Below are positions 3,048-44,264 of a stretch of DNA of 45,744 bases, piece by piece (the stretch's first letter is position 1; each line of letters begins with the position of its first letter). Where the stretch lies: the IMG/VR virus record IMGVR_UViG_3300005253_002051; one strand, 5' to 3'. The translations under genes were made by a program, and so were the position numbers. A model generated the notes under the pieces. It saw nothing but the letters and a program-made list of their open reading frames with translations. It was not told the DNA's origin and did no database searches. This DNA comes from a virus.

Positions 3048-4301
3048 ATGAAAAAAATAAAAACACTATTTTTCTCTCTAGCACTAGCTGGATCGATATT
3101 TTTAGGAACTCCTACATACGCATTTCATAATAACACAGCCGAACCTACTACACAAACACAAGAAGAACTTCGAGTTCTTATGGAAATTATTGGCAGGGTT
3201 CTTAATAACTACGTTGAAGAGCGCGAAAGCCAAGAAGTTATTGACGCCGCAATCGATGGAGTTATTAAGTCACTCGATAAACACTCGAGTTATATGCCTC
3301 CCAAAGCAGCCCAAGATATGATGCAAGAAATGACTGGAAGTTTTTTCGGAATCGGCGCGGAGGTTAATAAACATAAAGAAACCAAATACATCGAAGTCGT
3401 ATCACCAATCGAAGGTTCTCCAGCAGAAGCAGCGGGTATACGCCCCGGAGACTTAATAAAAAGCGTTAACGGCGTTGAGTTGAAAGAACTTAGTCAAAAC
3501 GATGCTATAAAGAACATTCGTGGTCCGAACGGCACTAAAGCAAAAATGGTAATCGTGCGTGGTGAAGAAGAATTAACTATTATCGTAATACGAGCAAAAA
3601 TTCAACTAGTAGTCGTTCGTTCAAGAATGTTAGAGAATAATATAGCGTATGTCAGACTTACTACATTTAATCAAAAATCTTTGGGCAAAACTAAGGATGC
3701 ATTTCGGGAATTAAAAAGACAGTTAGGAGACGAAGAATTTAATGGTATGATTTTGGATCTTCGTAATAATCCTGGCGGTTTATTAGATCAAGCAATTGCT
3801 ATAAGTGATTTATTTCTTGATGCGGGAACGATCGTTACGACGAGAGAACGAGGCGGCGAGATTGCTTATATCGAATTCGCTACTCCAGGTCAAATTATCC
3901 CATCTAAGACGCCAATAATTGTTTTGATTAATGAAGGATCTGCATCTGCTTCTGAAATCGTAGCAGGAACATTACAAGATTTAGACAGAGCTACAATTGT
4001 TGGAGTTAAATCATATGGAAAAGGGTCTGTTCAGTCTATTATTCCACTAAGTAATGGTGGAAAGTTGAGACTCACAGTCGCAAAATACTATACCGCTGGA
4101 GGAACTACGCCGCATGATGTAGGAATCACGCCCGACGTAGTGGTCGAACTTCCAGAAGGATATTGGGATAATATTCCAGTTAGAGAACGTCGTAATCATA
4201 TTGATCCACAATTACAGAAAGCAATTGATATTCTTTCAAATGTGTCTAATGCTCCTGAAATTGATATTCCTGGACCAAATTGCGACGAAAATCCTTGCTA
4301 A
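3048..4301 (+). CDS. ctpA: C-terminal processing (tail-specific) peptidase, S41 family, with signal peptide and PDZ domain
   Basis: Signal peptide MKKIKTLFFSLALAGSIFLGTPTYA. Motifs FGIGAEV (PDZ), DLRNNPGGLLDQAI, NEGSASASEIVAG and KSYGKGSVQS. Confidence 0.85.
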   Translation: MKKIKTLFFSLALAGSIFLGTPTYAFHNNTAEPTTQTQEELRVLMEIIGRVLNNYVEERESQEVIDAAIDGVIKSLDKHSSYMPPKAAQDMMQEMTGSFFGIGAEVNKHKETKYIEVVSPIEGSPAEAAGIRPGDLIKSVNGVELKELSQNDAIKNIRGPNGTKAKMVIVRGEEELTIIVIRAKIQLVVVRSRMLENNIAYVRLTTFNQKSLGKTKDAFRELKRQLGDEEFNGMILDLRNNPGGLLDQAIAISDLFLDAGTIVTTRERGGEIAYIEFATPGQIIPSKTPIIVLINEGSASASEIVAGTLQDLDRATIVGVKSYGKGSVQSIIPLSNGGKLRLTVAKYYTAGGTTPHDVGITPDVVVELPEGYWDNIPVRERRNHIDPQLQKAIDILSNVSNAPEIDIPGPNCDENPC

Positions 4302-5124: not shown

Positions 5125-6276
5125 ATGGCTACATTAACGAAAGATGACGCGGTCAAGGTTGAGATGGAAGTCAGCATGGCCGACAGCAAGGGTGCTTTAG
5201 CAGTCCTAGCGGACAATAAATCACCCGAAGATCAGGCTAAAGTTCTACAACTTATGGCCCAGATTAACATGGATGACACAACTTCTGTCATTTCCTTCGG
5301 TGTCAGCGCCCAGGCAGGCCTATCCGAGCAGAGTAGCGCGATGCTTGCTGGTGTGCGTAATAAGGACACTGGACCAGCCGGTCAAGTTATGAACGGTCTT
5401 ATGGTTCAGATTCGCGGATTGGGTCTAGACGACTTAGATCCGAATGCAAAGCGTGGCTTTATTGCTAAGCTGCTCAAAAAGCTAACACCGCTTCAGAAGT
5501 TCATTCAACAGTATGAAAGTATCGAATCACAGATTGATGCGACGGTTGCTAAGCTCGAAGGCGAGCAGAAGAAGCTCAATCGCGACGTCTTAATGCTTGA
5601 TGGCATGTATAACGAGGCATTAAAGTTCTTCAATGAGCTTGCTTTTTACATTGAAGCGGCTGAGATGAAGCTTGAAGACGTCCGTGCTGTTGATATTCCA
5701 GCACTACAAGCGCACGCGGACAAAACCGACAACATGATGGATCATCAGAAAGCTAAAGATATGGTGGATCGTTCCATGGATTTGGAGCGCAAGATTCACG
5801 ATCTTATGCTTACGCGCACTGTAACTATGCAGATGCTCCCTCAGCTTCGTATGATTCAGGATACAGACAAATCGCTTGTCACCAAGATTGGTTCTTCTAT
5901 CTTGGTAACGATTCCTGTCTGGAAGAATCAGATTGCTATGAGCATTGCTCTTCACAATCAGGCTGGTGCTGCTGCGGTTACTAAAGCAGTTGGCGATGCT
6001 ACAAGTGAGATGATTGAGACGACTGCCAAACAGCTCAGAACTGGTAATGCGGCAGCTCGTAAGGAAGTTGAGCGTGGCGTTATCGACATCGAGAGCATCA
6101 AGCGAGCTAATGAGGACTTGATTGCTACGATTGCTGAATCAATTCAAATCGCCGAGGAAGGTCAGCGTGCTCGTATTGCCGCCAAGGCAGATATGAATCA
6201 GTGTGAGACCGAGCTCAAAGCTGCTCTTCGTGATGCAAAAGGCACTGTAGTAGACGCAGTTGCTGATTCTATCTAG
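5125..6276 (+). CDS. telA: TelA / YaaN / KlaA family toxic-anion-resistance-like protein
   Basis: Family-typical blocks ISFGVSAQAGLSEQSSAMLAGVRNKDTGPAGQVMNGLMVQI, DGMYNEALKFFNELAFYIEAAEMKLED and LMLTRTVTMQMLPQLRMIQD..ILVTIPVWKNQI. Confidence 0.8.
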   Translation: MATLTKDDAVKVEMEVSMADSKGALAVLADNKSPEDQAKVLQLMAQINMDDTTSVISFGVSAQAGLSEQSSAMLAGVRNKDTGPAGQVMNGLMVQIRGLGLDDLDPNAKRGFIAKLLKKLTPLQKFIQQYESIESQIDATVAKLEGEQKKLNRDVLMLDGMYNEALKFFNELAFYIEAAEMKLEDVRAVDIPALQAHADKTDNMMDHQKAKDMVDRSMDLERKIHDLMLTRTVTMQMLPQLRMIQDTDKSLVTKIGSSILVTIPVWKNQIAMSIALHNQAGAAAVTKAVGDATSEMIETTAKQLRTGNAAARKEVERGVIDIESIKRANEDLIATIAESIQIAEEGQRARIAAKADMNQCETELKAALRDAKGTVVDAVADSI

Positions 6277-6303: not shown

Positions 6304-8079
6304 GTGAGAAAGATTTTTTCATTAGCGGCAATTGCTACTACGTTTTCGTTAGTAGCCGCTGCGTTTTCGCCTAACTCAGCAAGTGCTCAGAACTACGTCG
6401 AGATGAAACCTCTCGCTGAAGTTCTTGCAGGTGCCAGTGTTCGTGATTGTCGCGGCGGTGAAGGTCAAAATGTTACCATGATCACATGGGGTGCAGACAT
6501 TTTTACTCTTCATGCTAATGGCGCGTCACTTACTACACAGCCTGGGAGCATTTTTGCCGACGAAGGCTTAACTGTTACGTTGAAGAGAGAGGATGTTTTT
6601 GCAAAGCAGGTTGAAGCATATTTGCGTTGTGACACTCCGTATCTTCGTGGGACACTTGGACAGATTAACTTAGCTAGCGACATTACTGCTGTTAATCCTG
6701 GCACCGAGATGGTTCCGATCATTCAACTTAGCTGGTCGAATGGTGGTGATGCTCTTGTTGCTAAAAAGGGTATCAATAAGCCAGCAGATCTAAAGGGTAA
6801 GACAATCGTGGTTCAGGCTTATGGGCCGCACGTTGCTTATCTTAATAAGGTTCTTGCCGACGCCGGCTTAACGCCGAACGATGTCACTATCGTTTACACC
6901 AAAGACTTAGTTGGTTTCGATGACGATACGACACCTGGAAGCGCGTTCCTCGATGATCCAAATATTGATGCGGCAATGGTTATTATTCCAGATGCGCTAA
7001 AATTAACATCAGGTGGAACTGGCGGAACTGGCGCAGAGAATTCGTTCGACGGCGCAGAGATTATGCTTTCTACCAAATCTGCAAGCCGTGTTATCGCAGA
7101 CGTTTATGTCGTGCGCAAAGACTACCTTGAGGCAAACAGAGATGAAGTTCAGAAGTTTGTTCACGCTCTCTTAGTTGCCGAGGAAAGTCTTAGGAAGCTG
7201 GTTCTAGAGAAAGATACTCGGACAGATGAATACAACGCGATTATTGTTGCCGCTGCCGGTCATCTTCTCGATGCTCCAACTGACATCGACGACACGGAAG
7301 GTATGTATGCCGATGCCGAGACAATTGGGTTTGCTGGCAACAAGAAGTTCTTTGAAAACACTAAGTATCCAAGGAACGTCACTAAGCTTACCAGTGAGAT
7401 CCAGACGGCGTATGTCCAGCAAGGTATGTTGGCTGCTACTGCATCATTAGGTTCTGCTACTTGGAACTATGATGCTCTAAAGGCTGGCATCACTAACACG
7501 ATTGCTAAAACTACGCCTAAGTTCAATGCCGATAAGTTGGCCGCTGCTGTGACCAACATGGCATCAAGCGGCGCCTTAGATGATGGAACATTATTCGAGT
7601 TCCAAATCAACTTTCAGCCGGAACAGGACACATTCTCTGTGGAGATTTATGGAGATGCGTTTAAGCAGGTAGTTGACCTAGCATCTACTTATGCTGGCGC
7701 GATTATTACGGTTGAAGGGCACAGTGATCCAGCAAACTTCATTAAGAAGATGAAGAACGGTGCTGGTGAAGGTATTCTAAATCGTATTAGGCAGCGTGCC
7801 AAGAATCTTAGCGTTAGTCGCTCAACTGCGGTTCGTAAGGCTGTCTTGGACATGGCTGCTGCTTCTGGTGTTCCGATGGACCCAAGTCAGTTTGTGACTA
7901 TTGGTTATGGCATTTCAAACCCGGCTACTGGTGTCTGTCAGAGAAAAGATGAGCCACTTTGCTTAGCTGCTGGACTTCCAAGATATCCGGCAAATAAAGC
8001 GGAATGGCTTAACAACATGCGTGTTGTGTTTAAAATCATTAACGTCGAGGCTGAATCCTCAGCGTTCGAAACATTTTAA
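6304..8079 (+). CDS. secreted protein: periplasmic solute-binding-like N-domain plus C-terminal OmpA/MotB-like peptidoglycan-binding domain
   Basis: Signal peptide MRKIFSLAAIATTFSLVAAAFSPNSASAQ. C-terminus ITVEGHSDPANF..NLSVSRSTAVRKAVL..GYGISNP matches the OmpA_C motif. Confidence 0.7.
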   Translation: MRKIFSLAAIATTFSLVAAAFSPNSASAQNYVEMKPLAEVLAGASVRDCRGGEGQNVTMITWGADIFTLHANGASLTTQPGSIFADEGLTVTLKREDVFAKQVEAYLRCDTPYLRGTLGQINLASDITAVNPGTEMVPIIQLSWSNGGDALVAKKGINKPADLKGKTIVVQAYGPHVAYLNKVLADAGLTPNDVTIVYTKDLVGFDDDTTPGSAFLDDPNIDAAMVIIPDALKLTSGGTGGTGAENSFDGAEIMLSTKSASRVIADVYVVRKDYLEANRDEVQKFVHALLVAEESLRKLVLEKDTRTDEYNAIIVAAAGHLLDAPTDIDDTEGMYADAETIGFAGNKKFFENTKYPRNVTKLTSEIQTAYVQQGMLAATASLGSATWNYDALKAGITNTIAKTTPKFNADKLAAAVTNMASSGALDDGTLFEFQINFQPEQDTFSVEIYGDAFKQVVDLASTYAGAIITVEGHSDPANFIKKMKNGAGEGILNRIRQRAKNLSVSRSTAVRKAVLDMAAASGVPMDPSQFVTIGYGISNPATGVCQRKDEPLCLAAGLPRYPANKAEWLNNMRVVFKIINVEAESSAFETF

Positions 8080-8094
8080 GGGGAGGGTAGTAAC

Positions 8095-8898
8095 ATGTTG
8101 AAACTTAGATTATTTGCTGCTCTTGTCATAGCAGGTGGCGTGCTTGCCGCCTGCGACGACGCCCCAAGCCAGGGCAATGCAATCGGCACTACGAAAACGG
8201 CTACATCGTCGGGAAGTTCTTCTAGTGCTACGACAGTATCTTCTGTCAAGGCCAATGTAGTTTGGCCCGGTATGGCGCCCGAAGATATGAACGTTGCTAT
8301 CGATAGCAATCTAACACGTTCTAACTTTATGGTGGTTTACGATGGTTCGGGTAGCATGGATTACGATTCTTGTGGCTCAAATAGTCCAAACCGTCATGCT
8401 GATGGTGTCATAGCCCTTAAAGAGTTTGTCAAAGCAGTTCCAGACGACGCGAATCTTGGATTGTTTGTTTTCGACGGAAAAGGAATGGCTGTTAGAGTTC
8501 CTCTTGCTGTTGGAAACCGAGACATATTCTTAAGCGAGGTTGATAGCATTAGTATTGGCCAAGGAACTCCATTAAGGTCGGCGATTAAGACTGCCTACTT
8601 TGAACTTAAAAATCGAGCTTATCGTCAGCTTGGTTATGGTAGGTATTCGTTGGTTATTGTCACCGACGGAGAAGCAAACAGCGGCGAAGATCCAACAAGA
8701 ATCGTCAATGATATTATTGATGAGACTCCTGTTGAGGTTCATACCGTTGGGCTTTGCTTTAGTGGTAGACATTCGTTGAATCAGGCAGGTAGGACATTCT
8801 ACACCGACGCCCAAAATCCGGCGCAACTTATCGAAGGATTGAAGAGCGTTCTGGCTGAAACTTCAGTGGATGACGCTGCGGAGTTTAATACGCAGTAA
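8095..8898 (+). CDS. lipoprotein with von Willebrand factor A (vWA) domain
   Basis: Lipobox LAAC after an N-terminal hydrophobic stretch. MIDAS motif DGSGSM, followed by GTPLRSAI and VIVTDGEANSG. Confidence 0.75.
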   Translation: MLKLRLFAALVIAGGVLAACDDAPSQGNAIGTTKTATSSGSSSSATTVSSVKANVVWPGMAPEDMNVAIDSNLTRSNFMVVYDGSGSMDYDSCGSNSPNRHADGVIALKEFVKAVPDDANLGLFVFDGKGMAVRVPLAVGNRDIFLSEVDSISIGQGTPLRSAIKTAYFELKNRAYRQLGYGRYSLVIVTDGEANSGEDPTRIVNDIIDETPVEVHTVGLCFSGRHSLNQAGRTFYTDAQNPAQLIEGLKSVLAETSVDDAAEFNTQ

Positions 8899-8903
8899 AA
8901 GAC

Positions 8904-26765: not shown

Positions 26766-28289
26766 ATGAAAGAAAAAGTAGATTATCTTTTAAAAAGCAT
26801 GGGCGTTGTTCCATCTTCGTTTGAAGGAAACCGGCTCGTTTACACTCCGATTAATGGCACGGAGATCGGTTCAGTTCAAGACACTATCTCTTCTGTAAAA
26901 GAGATGTTGCCGACTATTAAACAGTCAACAGAAGCATTTAATGAGTGGAAAAATGTTCCAGGTCCACAACGTGGTGAGTTAATAAGACTTTTCGCTGAAC
27001 AGCTTCGTATATATAAACAGCCACTTGGAGAGCTTGTCACAATTGAGAACGGTAAAATTCTTCAAGAAGGACTCGGCGAAGTTCAGGAGATGATTGATAT
27101 CTGTGATTTTGCTGTAGGACTGTCGCGTCAACTATATGGTCTAACAATTGCTTCTGAGCGTCCTGGACATAAACTAATGGAAACATGGCACCCACTAGGT
27201 CCTGTCGCTGTTATCACTGCTTTCAACTTTCCTGTTGCTGTTTGGTCTTGGAACTTTGCGTTGGCAATAGTTTGTGGGGACAGTGTTATCTGGAAGCCAA
27301 GTGAAAAAACTCCTCTCACAGCGTTAGCTTGTCAGCAACTATTCTTGAATGCTGTGGACAATTTTGATGAAAAGTTTGATGACGTTCCTGAAAATCTGTC
27401 ACAAGTGGTTTTCGGTGGCTCGCAAGCTGGCGCCGCACTTGCTGAAAGCGATAAAATTAAGCTCGTGAGTGCTACAGGCAGCACACAGATGGGTCAGTTT
27501 ATTGCTCCCTATGTTGCAAGTCGTCTGGGACGTTATCTTCTGGAGCTGGGTGGCAATAATGGTATGATAGTCACACCATCTGCAGATTTGGATATGGCAC
27601 TTAAAGCTATCGTCTTTAGTGCTGTTGGAACTGCTGGACAACGTTGCACTACATTAAGGCGTGTTATTGTTCACGAAGATATTCATGATGATCTTGTGCG
27701 AAAACTTAAGAAGGCATACAATACAATCTCTATCGGAAATCCGCTTGATGAAAAAAATCTAGTTGGTCCATTGATTGATGGATCTGCGTTTGGTGATATG
27801 GAGCTTTCGTTATCCGTAGCTGCCAATGAAGGCGGAACTGTGTTTGGCGGTGAGCGCGTATTAGAAGATAAATTTTCTTCGTATGGATACTATGTAAAGC
27901 CGGCAATTGTTGAAATGCCAGAACAGTCAGCTATTGTCAAACGTGAGACATTTGCTCCTATTCTTTATGTAATGAAATACAGTGATTTTGATGATGCTCT
28001 AGAAATGCACAATGATGTCCCACAAGGATTAAGTTCTTGTATTTTTAGCACCGATATTAGAGAGACAGAAAAATTCCTATCGACAAGTGACTGTGGACTT
28101 GCTAATGTAAACATCGGACCAAGTGGCGCAGAAATAGGAGGCGCGTTTGGTGGAGAAAAAGAAACAGGTGGTGGTCGCGAAAGCGGAAGCGATGCTTGGA
28201 AGAGCTACATGCGTCGTGCTACTAACACGATAAACTATTCTACAGAGTTGCCATTGGCCCAAGGTATTAAATTTGATGTAGGAGATTGA
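26766..28289 (+). CDS. aldehyde dehydrogenase, ALDH7 (antiquitin / piperideine-6-carboxylate dehydrogenase) type
   Basis: Long near-identical blocks to ALDH7A1: EVQEMIDICDFAVGLSRQLYG, ITAFNFPVAVWSWN, LELGGNN, VGTAGQRCTT, ETFAPILYV and VNIGPSGAEIGGAFGGEKETGGGRESGSDAWKSYMRRATNTINYS. Confidence 0.9.
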   Translation: MKEKVDYLLKSMGVVPSSFEGNRLVYTPINGTEIGSVQDTISSVKEMLPTIKQSTEAFNEWKNVPGPQRGELIRLFAEQLRIYKQPLGELVTIENGKILQEGLGEVQEMIDICDFAVGLSRQLYGLTIASERPGHKLMETWHPLGPVAVITAFNFPVAVWSWNFALAIVCGDSVIWKPSEKTPLTALACQQLFLNAVDNFDEKFDDVPENLSQVVFGGSQAGAALAESDKIKLVSATGSTQMGQFIAPYVASRLGRYLLELGGNNGMIVTPSADLDMALKAIVFSAVGTAGQRCTTLRRVIVHEDIHDDLVRKLKKAYNTISIGNPLDEKNLVGPLIDGSAFGDMELSLSVAANEGGTVFGGERVLEDKFSSYGYYVKPAIVEMPEQSAIVKRETFAPILYVMKYSDFDDALEMHNDVPQGLSSCIFSTDIRETEKFLSTSDCGLANVNIGPSGAEIGGAFGGEKETGGGRESGSDAWKSYMRRATNTINYSTELPLAQGIKFDVGD

Positions 28290-28881: not shown

Positions 28882-28955
28882 GCCCGGTTAGTTCAATGAT
28901 AGAACCGGACGCTCATAACGTTCTTATGGGGGTTTGATTCCCTCACCGGGTACCA
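28882..28955 (+). tRNA. tRNA-Met (anticodon CAU; initiator, elongator or Ile-lysidine type cannot be resolved by eye), CCA encoded
   Basis: The acceptor stem gcccggt/accgggt has a G-U first pair. D-stem gttc/gaac. Anticodon stem ggacg/cgttc carries the loop ctcataa (CAT). T-stem ggggg/ccctc. Discriminator A. Confidence 0.75.
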
Positions 28956-38623: not shown

Positions 38624-38920
38624 GTGAAGATTATGATAAAATTCACTATATCACTTATCGCAGCAATGTTATTAACTGCTATGGTTCAAGACGCACGAGC
38701 CGATTCGTTAGTGTGTAATCATAATGGTCAACAATTAATATATACGGAGGTAAAGGAATCTGATGATCCAAATGGTGTAAAGGCGGTATATCGAAGTGGG
38801 ATAGTAATTTTTCATAATGGAAAAGAATATCGTTACAATGATATTATTCCCTGTGCTATGATTGAAGAAGATAGAGGCAAAACTAAATTCTTAAAGGAAT
38901 ATCTGGCACAATTCGAATGA
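38624..38920 (+). CDS. small secreted protein (signal peptide, GTG start)
   Basis: ORF track. Begins MKIMIKFTISLIAAMLLTAMVQDARA. RBS AGGTGAAGATT. Confidence 0.5.
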   Translation: MKIMIKFTISLIAAMLLTAMVQDARADSLVCNHNGQQLIYTEVKESDDPNGVKAVYRSGIVIFHNGKEYRYNDIIPCAMIEEDRGKTKFLKEYLAQFE

Positions 38921-39225
38921 CCGAAGAATACGAAAAATGCCCTATATGTAATCGCGATATGATTCCAGGCAAAAGCTTGGACGATCATCATCTTATTCCA
39001 CGAACGTTTAAAGGCAAAGATCAAATAACGTTACATAAGGTGTGTCATCGTAAGCTCCATTCTTGTATCACAGAGAGGGAGATGCTACATCATTATCACA
39101 CTGTTGAACGTCTAACAGAACACGAAGAAATCCAAAAATTTGTGAAATGGATTAAAAAGAAAGATCCCGAATTTTATAGTGGAAGTAAAGAAACAAAAGG
39201 CAGGAAATCCAAGCGAAGAAGATAA
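38917..39225 (+). CDS. free-standing HNH-family zinc-binding nuclease-like protein
   Basis: CPICN....DDHHLIP....HKVCHRKLH is the C-x2-C...HH...H-x3-H HNH pattern. Basic C-terminal tail. Confidence 0.6.
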   Translation: MTEEYEKCPICNRDMIPGKSLDDHHLIPRTFKGKDQITLHKVCHRKLHSCITEREMLHHYHTVERLTEHEEIQKFVKWIKKKDPEFYSGSKETKGRKSKRRR

Positions 39226-39251: not shown

Positions 39252-42200
39252 TTGCTATGGATCGTATATATGCCAGAATTAAAAGAATATATAATTCGCG
39301 TTCAAAACAAATCCGATGTCGACGGCTTAGTCACGGAACTCCAATCTTGGGGTGTCACAGTTGACCACGTTTACAAAAGAGCGATGTTTGGTGTTTGCGC
39401 TAAACTAACTACTCTTCTTGTCGACTGGTATAAAAATGACGCTCGTGTCATTAGTATCGAAGAATCTGCCACATTTGAATCATCGGACCGCCAAGACAAC
39501 GCTCCAGCCCATCTTGATAGAATAGATCAGACAGATCTTCCATTAAGTGGAAGCTTTACTTTTTCTTCTGATGGTACAGGAGTGACAGCGTATATAATCG
39601 ATTCTGGTGCTATCTTCAATCACATAGAATTTGAAGGAAGGATCTCTCCTGTAGATAAAATTGGTTTTCCAGGAACTCCTTTTGATCCATTTTCAAGTGG
39701 TGGCATCGACGAATTTGGACATGGAACACATGTTGCTGGTATTATTGGAAGCAAAACATACGGTGTCACAAAAAAGGTTGTAATGAAAACTGCAAAAGTT
39801 TTCAATCGAACAGGATTTACTACATCAGGAACAATAATTGCCGCAATTGATGCGGTTATCGAAGATTATACTAACGCAGGGAAACCAGCTTCTCTATGCA
39901 ATATGAGTCTTGGTGCTCCGGTAAGTTCAACAGCACCAGAAACTTCTGTGGAAACTGCTGTATTGGCTATGATAAGCGAAGGGATAACGGTAGTAGTTGC
40001 TGCTGGAAATAATAACACCGACGTTGAGAACTTCCAACCAGCAAGATTGCCAGAAGTGATAACTGTTGGTGCGGTAGACGATACTGACTCGAGAGCAGTA
40101 TTTTCTAATTTTGGTAATTCTGAAGGATCTGTATTAAATCCAGGAGGAGAGTTTGGTACTTTTGATGATGCAGCTTCTAATACTGGATCTGCTGTCGATG
40201 TTTTCGCTCCAGGAACAAATATAATTTCCACATGGATTCCTGAACCTGGTGAGACTGACGGGGTTAATACTCTTAGTGGAACAAGTATGGCAAGTCCAGT
40301 TGTTGCTGGTGTTGCTGCGCTCGTTTTAGAAAATGCTCCAAGCGCGCTACCAGCTCTTGTACAAAGTGACATTGTTTCGTTTGCAACATCCGGAAAAGTA
40401 ACAAACATTCCTGGTGGAACAACCGACAAACTAATCTTTTCAATATTTGTTGATCACGTTATTGAATGGATAACTCCTGCTGGCAATGTTGATTTTCCAG
40501 AAGGACAAACACTCAATATACCGTTAGAAGCTATTGGTTTTACTGGAAATGCTGTTGGGTTTTCGTTAGTTTCTGGAACGTTGCCGCCCGGCATAACTTT
40601 AAATGGCGTAACCGGACTACTGTCTGGTGTGGCAGCCGCAGTAACAGTAGACACGATAAGCACGTTTACAATACGGGCATCAGATACTGTTGTTTTTGAG
40701 AACCGAACATTTAGTATTACAATCGTGGATAACCCTTTGCCGCCGGTTTGGCAGACATCACCCAATTTAGGATCAATCGAAGAAGGGGGCACGATTGCTA
40801 TTCAGCTTACAGCGGTAAGTCTAAATGATGCTCCAATTGTATATAGTGGTTCGTTGCCTCATGGATGGTTTGTTAGCACAACTGGATTTGTTACAGGAAT
40901 AGCGCCGCTAGTCGTTAATGTTGATTTTGAAACCAATTTTACTGTAACAGCTGATGATGGAATTCTTAGCACTCCGCGGACATTTCTTATCACGATCGCA
41001 CAAAATGACGATTTCTTACCCCCAGCCGAACCAAGATGGATAACTCCTGAGGGCTCCATTGGCGAGGTAATAGACACAAATGTATTTAATTTTCAATTAG
41101 AAGCAATTGATGAAAATTTTGATCCTCTGCCATTAAAATATTTTCTAACGTTACAAACAGCAGATGGAAGCACTTTTGGGCCGGTAGGTGAATTGCCACC
41201 AGGATTGCTGTTGGGTGAAGATACGGGATTGATTTCTGGAACATTTTTCTCTAATACACTCGATGAAGTGTTGGATTTTACTTTCGCTGTTTTTCTTTCT
41301 GATGGGGCGAATATTGTTGCTCGAACATTTACTATTCGTACTAGAAAACAAGCAGAAAATTTACCTCCCGAATGGGTAACACCGCAAGGAAGTTTAGGTT
41401 TAGTAGTAGCCGGAAGCTTTGCTACATTTACTGTGGCGGCGACTGATCCTGATAGCGGCCCCAATGACTTGACTTATTTTTTAAGTTCGGGCAGTCTTCC
41501 ACCAGGATTTAGTATAGATGCCAACTCAGGAGAAATTTCTGGAGTTGCAGTGTTGGTTGCCTCTGATGAGTTTTTCCCATTCATCTTGGGCGTTACTGAT
41601 GGAGAAGATACTGTTGTAAGATCGTTTTCTCTTTTAGTAGAAAAACTAAATTCAAGACCCGAGTGGGTAACGCCAGAAGGATTGTTATTACGTATAAACG
41701 AAGGACAACTTGCTGTAATTACATTAGAAGCAACTGATCCGGAGGATGATCAATTAACATTTAGTATCGTAAGTGGCGTTCTTCCGCCTGACTTGATTCT
41801 AAATCCAAATACCGGATCGATTTCTGGTTCTATATCAGACGTAACTGAAGATACTACGTTTTCATTTACGGTGCGCGTGGACGATAGTCTAAGTAACAGT
41901 CTTGGAGAAGAGTTATTCGCGGACAGAGATTTTTTTATTGAAGTTATTGATGGAATATTAAACACTAACAGACCACCAGAGTGGATTACTCCTGAAGGTG
42001 TTTTAACACAAGCAAACGAAGGACAAGCATATTTCTTCCAACTTGAGGCAACTGATCCTGACAACGGTCCGCAATTGCTTAATTACACACTAAATGCTGG
42101 CAGTCTTCCAAATGGTTTAGCATTAAATGCTATCAGTGGTGTTATATCTGGGTTTCCAAATGATCCAGACACTATGGATACTGTTTCTATTTTTATTGTA

Positions 42201-44264: not shown

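Follow-up and report, generated by a model that had tools for sequence, protein, structure and literature searches.

Virion-borne phage enzymes described so far almost all cut sugars, those of the capsule, of lipopolysaccharide (LPS) or of peptidoglycan. Here we describe a gene at positions 39270-44264 of IMG/VR virus record IMGVR_UViG_3300005253_002051 (hereafter the window, the whole stretch of 45,744 nucleotides (nt) that was analysed), which encodes a proteinase-K-type S8 protease fused to a string of He_PIG immunoglobulin (Ig)-like repeats and to a further domain shared with a large family of phage proteins. We favour, on balance, the reading that the product is a structural, virion-displayed protease carried on an Ig-like stalk. 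Its closest described relatives come from cultured jumbo phages. In RaK2, gp160 was reported as a 'putative virion protein' of 87.7 kDa, identified by 6 peptides with 8.1% coverage in CsCl-purified virions (PMC3622015), and in phAPEC6 the 90.3 kDa protein gp158c was found in virions by 9 peptides with 17.1% coverage (PMC7247149). In Agrobacterium phage Atu_ph07, gp329 was detected by electrospray ionization tandem mass spectrometry (ESI-MS/MS) of polyethylene glycol (PEG)-purified phage in gel fragments 1, 2 and 13, with 3 unique peptides and 2.08% coverage; its gene is the last in the third cluster of virion genes, 'CDS 284-329', and the neighbouring gp325-328 were detected too (PMC6102473). 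Phages 121Q, phAPEC6 and Atu_ph07 are 'hairy', bearing flexible fibres on the capsid hexamers and on three sheath rings, and the fibre proteins are unassigned (PMC7824862, PMC7247149).

A single unbroken open reading frame (ORF) on the plus strand occupies 39252-44264 and comprises 1670 amino acids (aa) when counted from the TTG at 39252. Every close homologue begins with MPELKEY, which matches the ATG at 39270, and the gene is therefore best placed at 39270-44264, encoding 1664 aa. Residues are numbered here from this ATG; an earlier note on this DNA, made from the sequence alone, counted from the TTG, so that its numbers are higher by 6. Antisense ORFs within the gene (for example, 39866-40429 on the minus strand) were rejected as shadow ORFs of a long coding region, and promoter and terminator scans around the gene gave sites no more numerous than in shuffled sequence. 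The layout of the gene is as follows.

39270..44264, plus strand: whole gene, 1664 aa plus stop (start from the homologues; the mechanical ORF opens at TTG 39252)
39270..39494, plus strand: putative I9-like propeptide, about aa 1-75, with no preceding signal peptide (family profile against 8rse_A; Pfam in relatives)
39495..40445, plus strand: peptidase S8 catalytic domain of the proteinase K type, about aa 76-392
39600-39602, 39720-39722, 40008-40010 and 40284-40286, plus strand: codons of the catalytic residues Asp111, His151, oxyanion Asn247 and Ser339, respectively
40452..42851, plus strand: eight tandem He_PIG (dystroglycan/cadherin-like Ig) repeats, at aa 395-488, 489-584, 585-696, 697-793, 794-899, 900-1000, 1001-1097 and 1098-1194 (Pfam, own repeat model, positional orthology in the family)
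42858..43502, plus strand: family-defining 2H-phosphoesterase-like domain, aa 1197-1411, containing HHRTF
43503..43790, plus strand: optional module resembling FliD D2-D3, about aa 1412-1507
43539-43664, plus strand: Pfam Flagellin_IN match, aa 1424-1465
43815..43826, plus strand: single TTFD motif, aa 1516-1519, in a low-confidence loop; multiplied in relatives as 7-residue repeats
43836..43946, plus strand: conserved small beta segment KGxGLxFxGRxxxVDRYLFE...WIKF, about aa 1523-1559
43959..44261, plus strand: ninth, C-terminal He_PIG repeat, aa 1564-1664
44319..45744, plus strand: neighbouring tail-fibre-like gene, separate from the S8 protein and running past the window end (PHROG tail-fibre families)

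The assignment of the N-terminal third to the S8 family was confirmed by a Pfam Peptidase_S8 match of 105.8 bits (cutoff 21.8; E 3.4e-30). The closest solved relatives of the first 410 residues were a keratinase (5wsl) and aqualysin I (4dzt), both at E about 2e-55, and proteinase K structures matched the same region at E 4e-43 to 3e-50. The motifs IIDSG, HGTHVAG, AAGNNN and SGTSMASP align with those of solved S8 enzymes, relative to which the domain carries an insertion of roughly 20 aa at aa 283-303. In an alignment of the protein with 18 relatives (33-96% identity) the triad D111/H151/S339 and the oxyanion residue N247 were intact and invariant, in agreement with the intact triad that the earlier note had read from the translation, and the same four residues were present in about 49-52 of 53 distant proteins that combine S8 and 2H-like domains, with S8 identity down to 25%. 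The S8 domain thus apparently represents an active proteinase-K-type protease.

An I9-type propeptide had also been claimed, and this proved correct for the family rather than for the individual sequence. In the window protein Inhibitor_I9 stayed below the Pfam threshold (12.9 bits, cutoff 21.2) and the isolated N-terminus gave no match either, whereas Pfam matched Inhibitor_I9 in 9 of 15 family members (best E 1.6e-9). A family profile of the first 85 residues aligned with residues 38-117 of pro-proteinase K (8rse_A) at E 7.5e-11, and also matched the separate S8 prodomain chains 8c4x_B (E 3e-6) and 8c4z_A (E 1e-3). The propeptide is therefore a predicted feature supported at the family level only. 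In the alignment with pro-proteinase K, residue 38 of the latter stands opposite residue 6 of the phage protein, which opens directly in the prodomain, and no signal-like N-terminus was identified in the window protein or in 53 relatives. The description of the enzyme as secreted had to be given up on these grounds, as a protein with no signal peptide could leave the cell only at lysis or as a component of the particle.

Fusion of the protease to He_PIG repeats was equally clear: Pfam He_PIG (PF05345) matched eight stretches of the window protein with 238 bits (E 8.8e-72), and a weak Cadherin match overlapped them. A repeat hidden Markov model (HMM) built for this protein resolved nine He_PIG-type units, eight in tandem (aa 395-1194) and one C-terminal (aa 1564-1664), fewer than the more than 10 previously estimated. 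The repeats had further been described as near-identical at the DNA level and hence recombinogenic and variable in length, a picture contradicted by the data. Tandem Repeats Finder detected no DNA array in the gene, and a direct-repeat search gave copies 60-80% identical, the sole exception being one 20-nt stretch at 95%. Nine units were counted in 16 of the 19 relatives, which span 38-96% identity; a deletion variant had six, and two relatives were counted at 10, a figure that includes overlapping or partial HMM matches. Individual units retain position-specific insertions across the family, and over much deeper divergence their number varies from 2 to 9. Given the divergent DNA copies, the stable count and the unit-specific insertions, the repeats are, as judged by sequence comparison, old and positionally orthologous domains, and no recombinogenic, length-variable array.

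The non-repeat insert noticed earlier does exist (aa about 1195-1563), in a subterminal position between repeats 8 and 9 instead of the central one assigned to it. Alignment of this block from 19 proteins distinguished part A, of ~215 residues and kept in all of them, part B, of ~100 residues, which carries the Flagellin_IN match, and part C, the conserved segment KGxGLxFxGRxxxVDRYLFE...WIKF. An AlphaFold2 model of the block based on the same alignment had a mean predicted local distance difference test (pLDDT) score of 79, with both folded parts mostly >80. In this model part A is predicted to adopt the characteristic bilobed alpha+beta fold of 2H phosphoesterases and part B a FliD D2-D3 fold. 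A Foldseek search against the PDB ranked FliD and FliC D2/D3 first (E 7e-3, probability 0.84) and returned a 2H match at a non-significant level only (ASCC1, E 0.5); against predicted viral structures it returned phage proteins labelled '2'-5' RNA ligase superfamily' and 'phosphoesterase' in addition to Atu_ph07 gp329. Part A is without any Pfam model, and Pfam gave no match to it, 2H families included, even at E up to 10. A profile of the insert searched against PDB sequences gave nothing meaningful (the best match being a designed protein, E 0.008), and a word-indexed protein search with the insert alone gave 4 fragmentary matches only. Most of the insert is thus a family-defining 2H-phosphoesterase-like domain, missed in the earlier note, which ties the protein to a large phage virion family.

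Searched against 1.84 billion proteins, a profile of part A recovered 1,052 cluster representatives at E <=1e-3, of which 711 reached E <=1e-10; in the viral contig collection it recovered 56 loci, on IMG/VR contigs of 140-600 kb. In 185,579 bacterial and archaeal species genomes no relatives of the domain were found by a single-protein scan or a profile scan. At 55 of the 56 viral loci the ORF had no protease and comprised one to six He_PIG units with the 2H-like domain after them, and among the best 150 representatives S8 was present in 36 and the FliD-like module in 7. To judge from these distributions, the He_PIG and 2H-like unit is the ancestral scaffold of the family and the S8 protease and the FliD-like module are additions to it. 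On a neighbour-joining tree of the 2H-like domain the presence of S8 was clustered, requiring 11 changes compared with about 32 for shuffled labels, although N-terminally truncated metagenomic proteins make this count unreliable.

The 2H superfamily is defined by a pair of HxT/Sx motifs, one per lobe, and this pair is absent in part A. A His-His pair (HHRTF in the window protein) opens one strand and is invariant in the close family, with the Thr kept in only about half of the sequences. Among the 150 representatives the second His (H94) alone is common (108/150), while the accompanying Thr/Ser varies; no His occurs in the corresponding strand of the other lobe (ALEVAFV), and RaK2 gp160 has Pro-Gln at the His-His position. 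Residues Y118, Y122, D127, R155, P168 and W170 of the domain are conserved family-wide in the same set. Canonical 2H catalysis was rejected because the second HxT/Sx motif is missing.

The resemblance of the insert to flagellar-cap FliD, put forward in the earlier note, received support from the Flagellin_IN match, which is marginal (24.2 bits, cutoff 22.7; E 4e-5), and from the FliD D2-D3-like fold predicted for part B. The module, about 95 aa in length, lies inside the protein and is optional, being found in 7 of the 150 representatives. Pfam identified no Flagellin_N/C or FliD_N/C domain in the window protein, which also has no D0/D1 coiled-coil segments, and it therefore cannot be a flagellar axial protein. 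In one relative of 1841 aa (P0012) a second FliD-like/Flagellin_IN copy lies inside the S8 catalytic domain, at about residues 260-330, which suggests that the module behaves as a mobile, insertable domain. Part B is missing from relatives P0006-P0011 and P0014, which have short TTFD repeats in its place. More generally, the T[TS]FD motif occurs in 1-8 copies per family protein compared with about 0.13 expected, the copies often being exactly 7 residues apart; in relatives P0005-P0017, L002, L003 and L006 they replace the FliD-like module, form C-terminal tails or sit inside He_PIG repeats. No other ORF in the window or in loci L001-L006 contains >=2 copies.

A tblastn search with aa 1098-1664 identified homologues in cultured phages, the match covering the last repeat together with the 2H-like domain: these were the S8 gene of Sinorhizobium phage Phosso (469 kb, E 2e-20) and that of Atu_ph07 (490 kb, E 2e-15). 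BLASTP against Atu_ph07 gp329 gave E 2e-40 and 3e-26. According to BLASTP and local HMMs, gp329 and the Phosso peptidase share the order S8, four He_PIG units, 2H-like domain and VDRY-type tail. A megablast search with the gene against 50,697 phage records gave zero matches. The S8-less locus L009 matched by tblastn the 'virion structural proteins' of Rak2-like jumbo phages (RaK2 ORF160, 121Q gp54 and those of K64-1, XaC1, XbC2 and others), and it also matches phrog_13911. The part A profile itself aligned with residues 527-736 of RaK2 gp160 (hhalign probability 92%, E 6.8e-7, 167 columns; hmmsearch E 1e-8). An orthologue of RaK2 gp160/121Q gp54 is present in 73 cultured jumbo phages, and phAPEC6 gp158c, in the same genomic position as 121Q gp54, is 97% identical to it. 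In one record, OQ708376.1 (Escherichia phage vB_EcoM_CRJP21, 257147-259537), the orthologue is labelled '5'-nucleotidase'; all other records have it as hypothetical or virion structural.

Gene order connects these proteins as well. A block made up of a Pol III alpha fragment, cpn10 and a gp44 clamp loader directly follows the gene in RaK2, 121Q and phAPEC6, and it is likewise downstream of the S8 giant in the related loci L001-L003, indicating that the S8 giant is the positional counterpart of RaK2 gp160. The S8-less loci L009 and L015, too, have a clamp loader 4-5 kb downstream. Considering the proteomic reports cited above, the S8-less members are solidly supported as components of the particle and the S8-bearing gp329 weakly. 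The virion association suggested in the earlier note was borne out to this extent, through homologues, of which the two solid cases (RaK2 gp160 and phAPEC6 gp158c) both lack S8. The cryo-electron microscopy paper on phiKp24 assigned no decoration protein that would place the gp160 homologue.

A word-indexed protein search identified about 17 full-length relatives of the window protein (38-96% identity) on contigs of up to 142, 359 and 570 kb. In L001-L003 the gene order is ClpS, SpoU methylase, small ORFs, the S8 giant, MazG, Pol III alpha fragment, RFC/gp44-like clamp loader, PhoH and topoisomerase; L002 also encodes a tyrosyl-tRNA synthetase at this locus. The window itself has three scattered tRNAs and many cell-like auxiliary genes, with nearly all genes on one strand. 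The earlier note had treated the element as a phage, and the window is indeed a huge-phage genome: synteny with cultured jumbo phages, these features of the window and the lack of relatives in cellular genomes all agree. Assignment of the gene to a huge phage of the Atu_ph07/Rak2-like lineage is the best explanation of the sequence data.

Based on these results, we propose the following role for the protein. It would be made in the cytoplasm with no signal peptide, and its prodomain would fold the protease and keep it latent until autocatalytic cleavage. T4 Hoc is an Ig-like capsid decoration protein; by analogy with Ig-like decoration proteins of this kind, and because the minimal members of the family consist of Ig repeats and the 2H-like domain only, the conserved C-terminal region may anchor the protein to the particle. 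The eight-repeat stalk would then project the protease tens of nanometres off the particle, where it could cut proteinaceous host-surface material (S-layer, pili, flagella or matrix proteins) and so give better access or attachment, and the optional FliD-head-like module could provide an extra binding surface. In this proposal we infer the location of the window protein in the virion, its orientation and anchored end, protease activity after assembly and the target. Traits of tailspike or tail-fibre depolymerases (a beta-helix or other glycan-degrading domain) were not detected by Pfam, PHROGs or fold search, the enzyme being a protease, and the depolymerase role in penetrating the surface layer suggested in the earlier note is conjectural.

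Several observations weigh against a virion-displayed protease. The proteomic support comes from homologues and not from the window protein itself. The well-supported virion members are protease-free and very distant (about 22% identity in the shared domain), and the gp329 signal, with 3 peptides, 2% coverage and PEG-only purification, could be lysate carry-over. In the PHROG search phrog_13911 was matched neither by the full window protein nor by its C-terminal 470 aa (aa 1195-1664). The gene sits among replication and auxiliary genes, outside the classical structural module. Fibre or minor-tail genes do occur within 1-3 genes downstream in the window, L001, Atu_ph07 and Phosso, and the adjacency to a tail-fibre-like gene pointed out in the earlier note stands, the neighbour beginning directly downstream at 44319; however, a fibre neighbour is absent in L002 and L003 and also in RaK2 and 121Q, so that no conserved functional link emerges and the adjacency is weak evidence. 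In PCSK9 the triad is kept, yet the enzyme is blocked by its own prodomain; an intact triad is thus no proof of activity after maturation.

Some of these points would suit a soluble, non-structural protease released at lysis, which might stick to debris or neighbouring cells through its Ig-like repeats and FliD-like module and degrade host proteins (for instance receptors on debris, with freeing of progeny or loosening of biofilm), the traces in virions being contamination. Such a protein would need no signal peptide, as it would leave the cell only at lysis; the virion support for gp329 is weak (3 peptides, 2.08%, PEG-only) and the genomic neighbourhood mostly non-structural. We nevertheless consider this explanation rather unlikely. 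The He_PIG and 2H-like scaffold was found in CsCl-purified RaK2 virions and, with good coverage, in phAPEC6 virions, the Atu_ph07 gene closes a cluster of nearly all virion proteins in which gp325-328 were detected too, and a C-terminal non-Ig domain conserved across >1,000 clusters of phage proteins is more readily understood as a docking module than as a piece of a free enzyme. The protein could also be structural with the S8 domain acting only in cis or during assembly, either autoprocessing itself into a prodomain-blocked binding head, as in PCSK9, or trimming virion proteins in morphogenesis. PCSK9 is indeed among the significant solved relatives, with prodomain and catalytic domain aligned at E about 1e-20, and the prodomain is conserved throughout the family; the gp329 peptides came from the gel top and from the low-mass fragment 13, which would fit a retained cleaved prodomain but is a lead only. 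By far the closest relatives, however, are not convertases but extracellular enzymes of broad specificity (aqualysin, keratinase and proteinase K, E 1e-55), and the oxyanion Asn and the substrate-binding motifs show the conservation seen in active enzymes. Moreover, the RaK2 and phAPEC6 virion proteomes each hold a separate prohead protease of the T4 gp21 type, so that head maturation needs no S8 enzyme, and on this evidence we regard a role confined to cis or assembly cleavage as unlikely.

Two further explanations shift the emphasis away from a phage-displayed protease. The 2H-like domain might be a working phosphodiesterase, acting on phosphodiester-linked surface polymers or on cyclic-nucleotide immune signals, to which the protease would be accessory. 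Family-wide conservation of the polar residues H94, Y118, Y122, D127 and R155 would be expected of such an enzyme, but the HxT/Sx pair is absent, only one His is conserved (108/150), the ALEVAFV strand has none, RaK2 gp160 carries Pro-Gln at the His-His position, and neither Pfam (no 2H match) nor Foldseek against the PDB (E 0.5, non-significant) assigned the domain to the superfamily, making this quite improbable. A cellular origin of the window, with the gene encoding a common type of bacterial surface adhesin-protease, is hardly credible, even though cell-like genes are present (for ABC transporter components, a histidine kinase, an aldehyde dehydrogenase, RpiB and a protein with an OmpA domain) and some He_PIG/S8 proteins in the databases are labelled as derived from a bacterial metagenome-assembled genome (MAG). 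A bacterial surface protease would need the signal peptide that is missing here, the gene order is common to Atu_ph07, RaK2, 121Q and phAPEC6, and the relatives lie on 140-600 kb IMG/VR contigs, with no relative of the 2H-like domain found in the 185,579 species genomes; in addition, huge phages typically show scattered tRNAs and near-uniform strand use, as seen here, and a tail-fibre-like gene adjoins.

Other genes of the window and of related loci were also inspected. A small plus-strand ORF directly upstream of the S8 gene (38917-39225) encodes a CxxC...HH...H...H pattern resembling an HNH-type zinc motif, with no Pfam match, and in L001-L003 the S8 gene likewise comes after small ORFs of comparable length (about 98-102 aa). 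The tail-fibre-like neighbour is 1072 aa long in the 96%-identical relative L001, where it contains PF26209 Phage_phiTE_241_C; past this gene L001 encodes two RCC1-repeat beta-propeller proteins of 730 aa (18278-20470) and 375 aa (20551-21678). A gene of similar size (372-429 aa) directly follows the S8 gene in L002 (15527-16645) and L003, the L002 copy having no Pfam match. Atu_ph07 gp320 ('hemagglutinin', adjoining MazG) may be the counterpart.

The tRNAs of the window are tRNA-Gly(tcc) at 1026-1099, tRNA-Leu(caa) at 23935-24018 and tRNA-Met(cat) at 28882-28955, the second immediately following a compact histidine kinase (HisKA and HATPase_c, 253 aa) at 23172-23933 (plus strand). The 636-kb uncultured phage LR756504.1 has a gene 55% identical to a full-length aldehyde dehydrogenase of the window (26766-28289, plus strand; Pfam E 6e-123), a match that links the window to the largest known phage genomes. 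An 858-aa protein encoded at 17380-19956 (plus strand) matches the eukaryotic major vault protein (MVP_shoulder E 3e-20; Vault_3 repeat E 6e-11), which is unusual for a phage, and Band_7/SPFH genes are found at the related loci L002 and L003. A cluster resembling ABC import genes (6304-15354, plus strand) comprises two substrate-binding-like genes, a VWA protein, a BPD_transp_1 permease and an ABC ATPase; of the substrate-binding genes the first is of the NMT1/THI5 type and the second, which carries an OmpA domain at its C-terminus, of the phosphonate-binding type. Also on the plus strand are genes for a CtpA-like S41 peptidase that contains a PDZ domain (3048-4301) and for a TelA/tellurite-resistance-like protein (5125-6276), and RaK2 has a tellurite-resistance gene (ORF172) a few kilobases from gp160.

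The gene itself is not unprecedented, since homologues have been deposited as 'protease' or 'S8 family peptidase' in Atu_ph07 and Phosso, and their S8-less kin are listed as virion structural proteins. The architecture, the 2H-fold domain without a Pfam model that unites these proteins and the FliD-head-like insert appear to be undescribed in the literature searched, and the window protein, which combines 8+1 repeats with the FliD-like module and the terminal repeat, is the most elaborate of the forms encountered. The domain family, with its 1,052 representatives, has no Pfam description and links dozens of jumbo-phage 'virion structural proteins'. If the proposed display on the virion is correct, a stalk-held protease of broad specificity would represent a different route to breach or cling to the host surface, used by a whole branch of the largest known phages. 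As a speculation, and a rather doubtful one, the He_PIG and 2H-like scaffold could be the subunit of the hair or whisker fibres on the heads and sheaths of Rak2-, 121Q- and Atu_ph07-like phages, with the degenerate 2H fold as docking module; a huge-phage branch would carry a latent protease at the fibre tips, and some members a FliD-head-like adhesin as well. This would amount to a virion-displayed protease directed against protein barriers, contrasting with the known glycan-cutting enzymes. RaK2 gp160, 121Q gp54, phAPEC6 gp158c and Atu_ph07 gp329 are candidates for the hairy fibres in culturable systems.

Compared with known systems, the protein's N-terminal part is closest to proteinase K, aqualysin I and keratinase (S8A), with which it shares the catalytic domain, the triad, the oxyanion Asn, the sequence motifs and, at the family level, an I9-type prodomain; unlike these enzymes it is phage-encoded, has no signal peptide and carries the ~20-aa insertion and a C-terminal extension of 1,270 residues. 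The domain near its C-terminus differs from the 2H superfamily (LigT, CPDase, Usb1, the AKAP18 central domain and Acb1) in having neither the two HxT/Sx motifs nor a sequence match, and it is embedded in virion proteins instead of RNA-repair or signalling proteins. With FliD (HAP2) D2-D3 and the outer domains of flagellin the optional module shares the Flagellin_IN match and the behaviour of an insertable domain, without the D0/D1 or terminal domains of those proteins. The likeness to T4 Hoc is an analogy only, consisting in Ig-like domains strung together ahead of a non-Ig C-terminal domain that is a candidate for docking to the particle; no relation in sequence or fold was found, and the window protein is far longer and carries an enzyme.

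Among phage proteins, RaK2 gp160, 121Q gp54 and phAPEC6 gp158c share with it the 2H-like domain near the C-terminus and the same genomic slot, and differ in their size of about 775-800 aa, in having no S8 domain, no He_PIG repeats detectable by Pfam and no FliD-like module, and in the unconserved His-His pair. Atu_ph07 gp329 ('extracellular serine proteinase precursor', 1251 aa) and the Phosso S8 family peptidase (1287 aa) differ by an overall identity of about 25-33%, by four repeats instead of 8+1, by the absence of the FliD-like module and of the C-terminal repeat, and by a longer region before S8 (about 150 aa). These two proteins, both from jumbo phages, nonetheless have the same order of parts as the window protein, including the N-terminal extension, and are likewise encoded near MazG and a Pol III alpha fragment.

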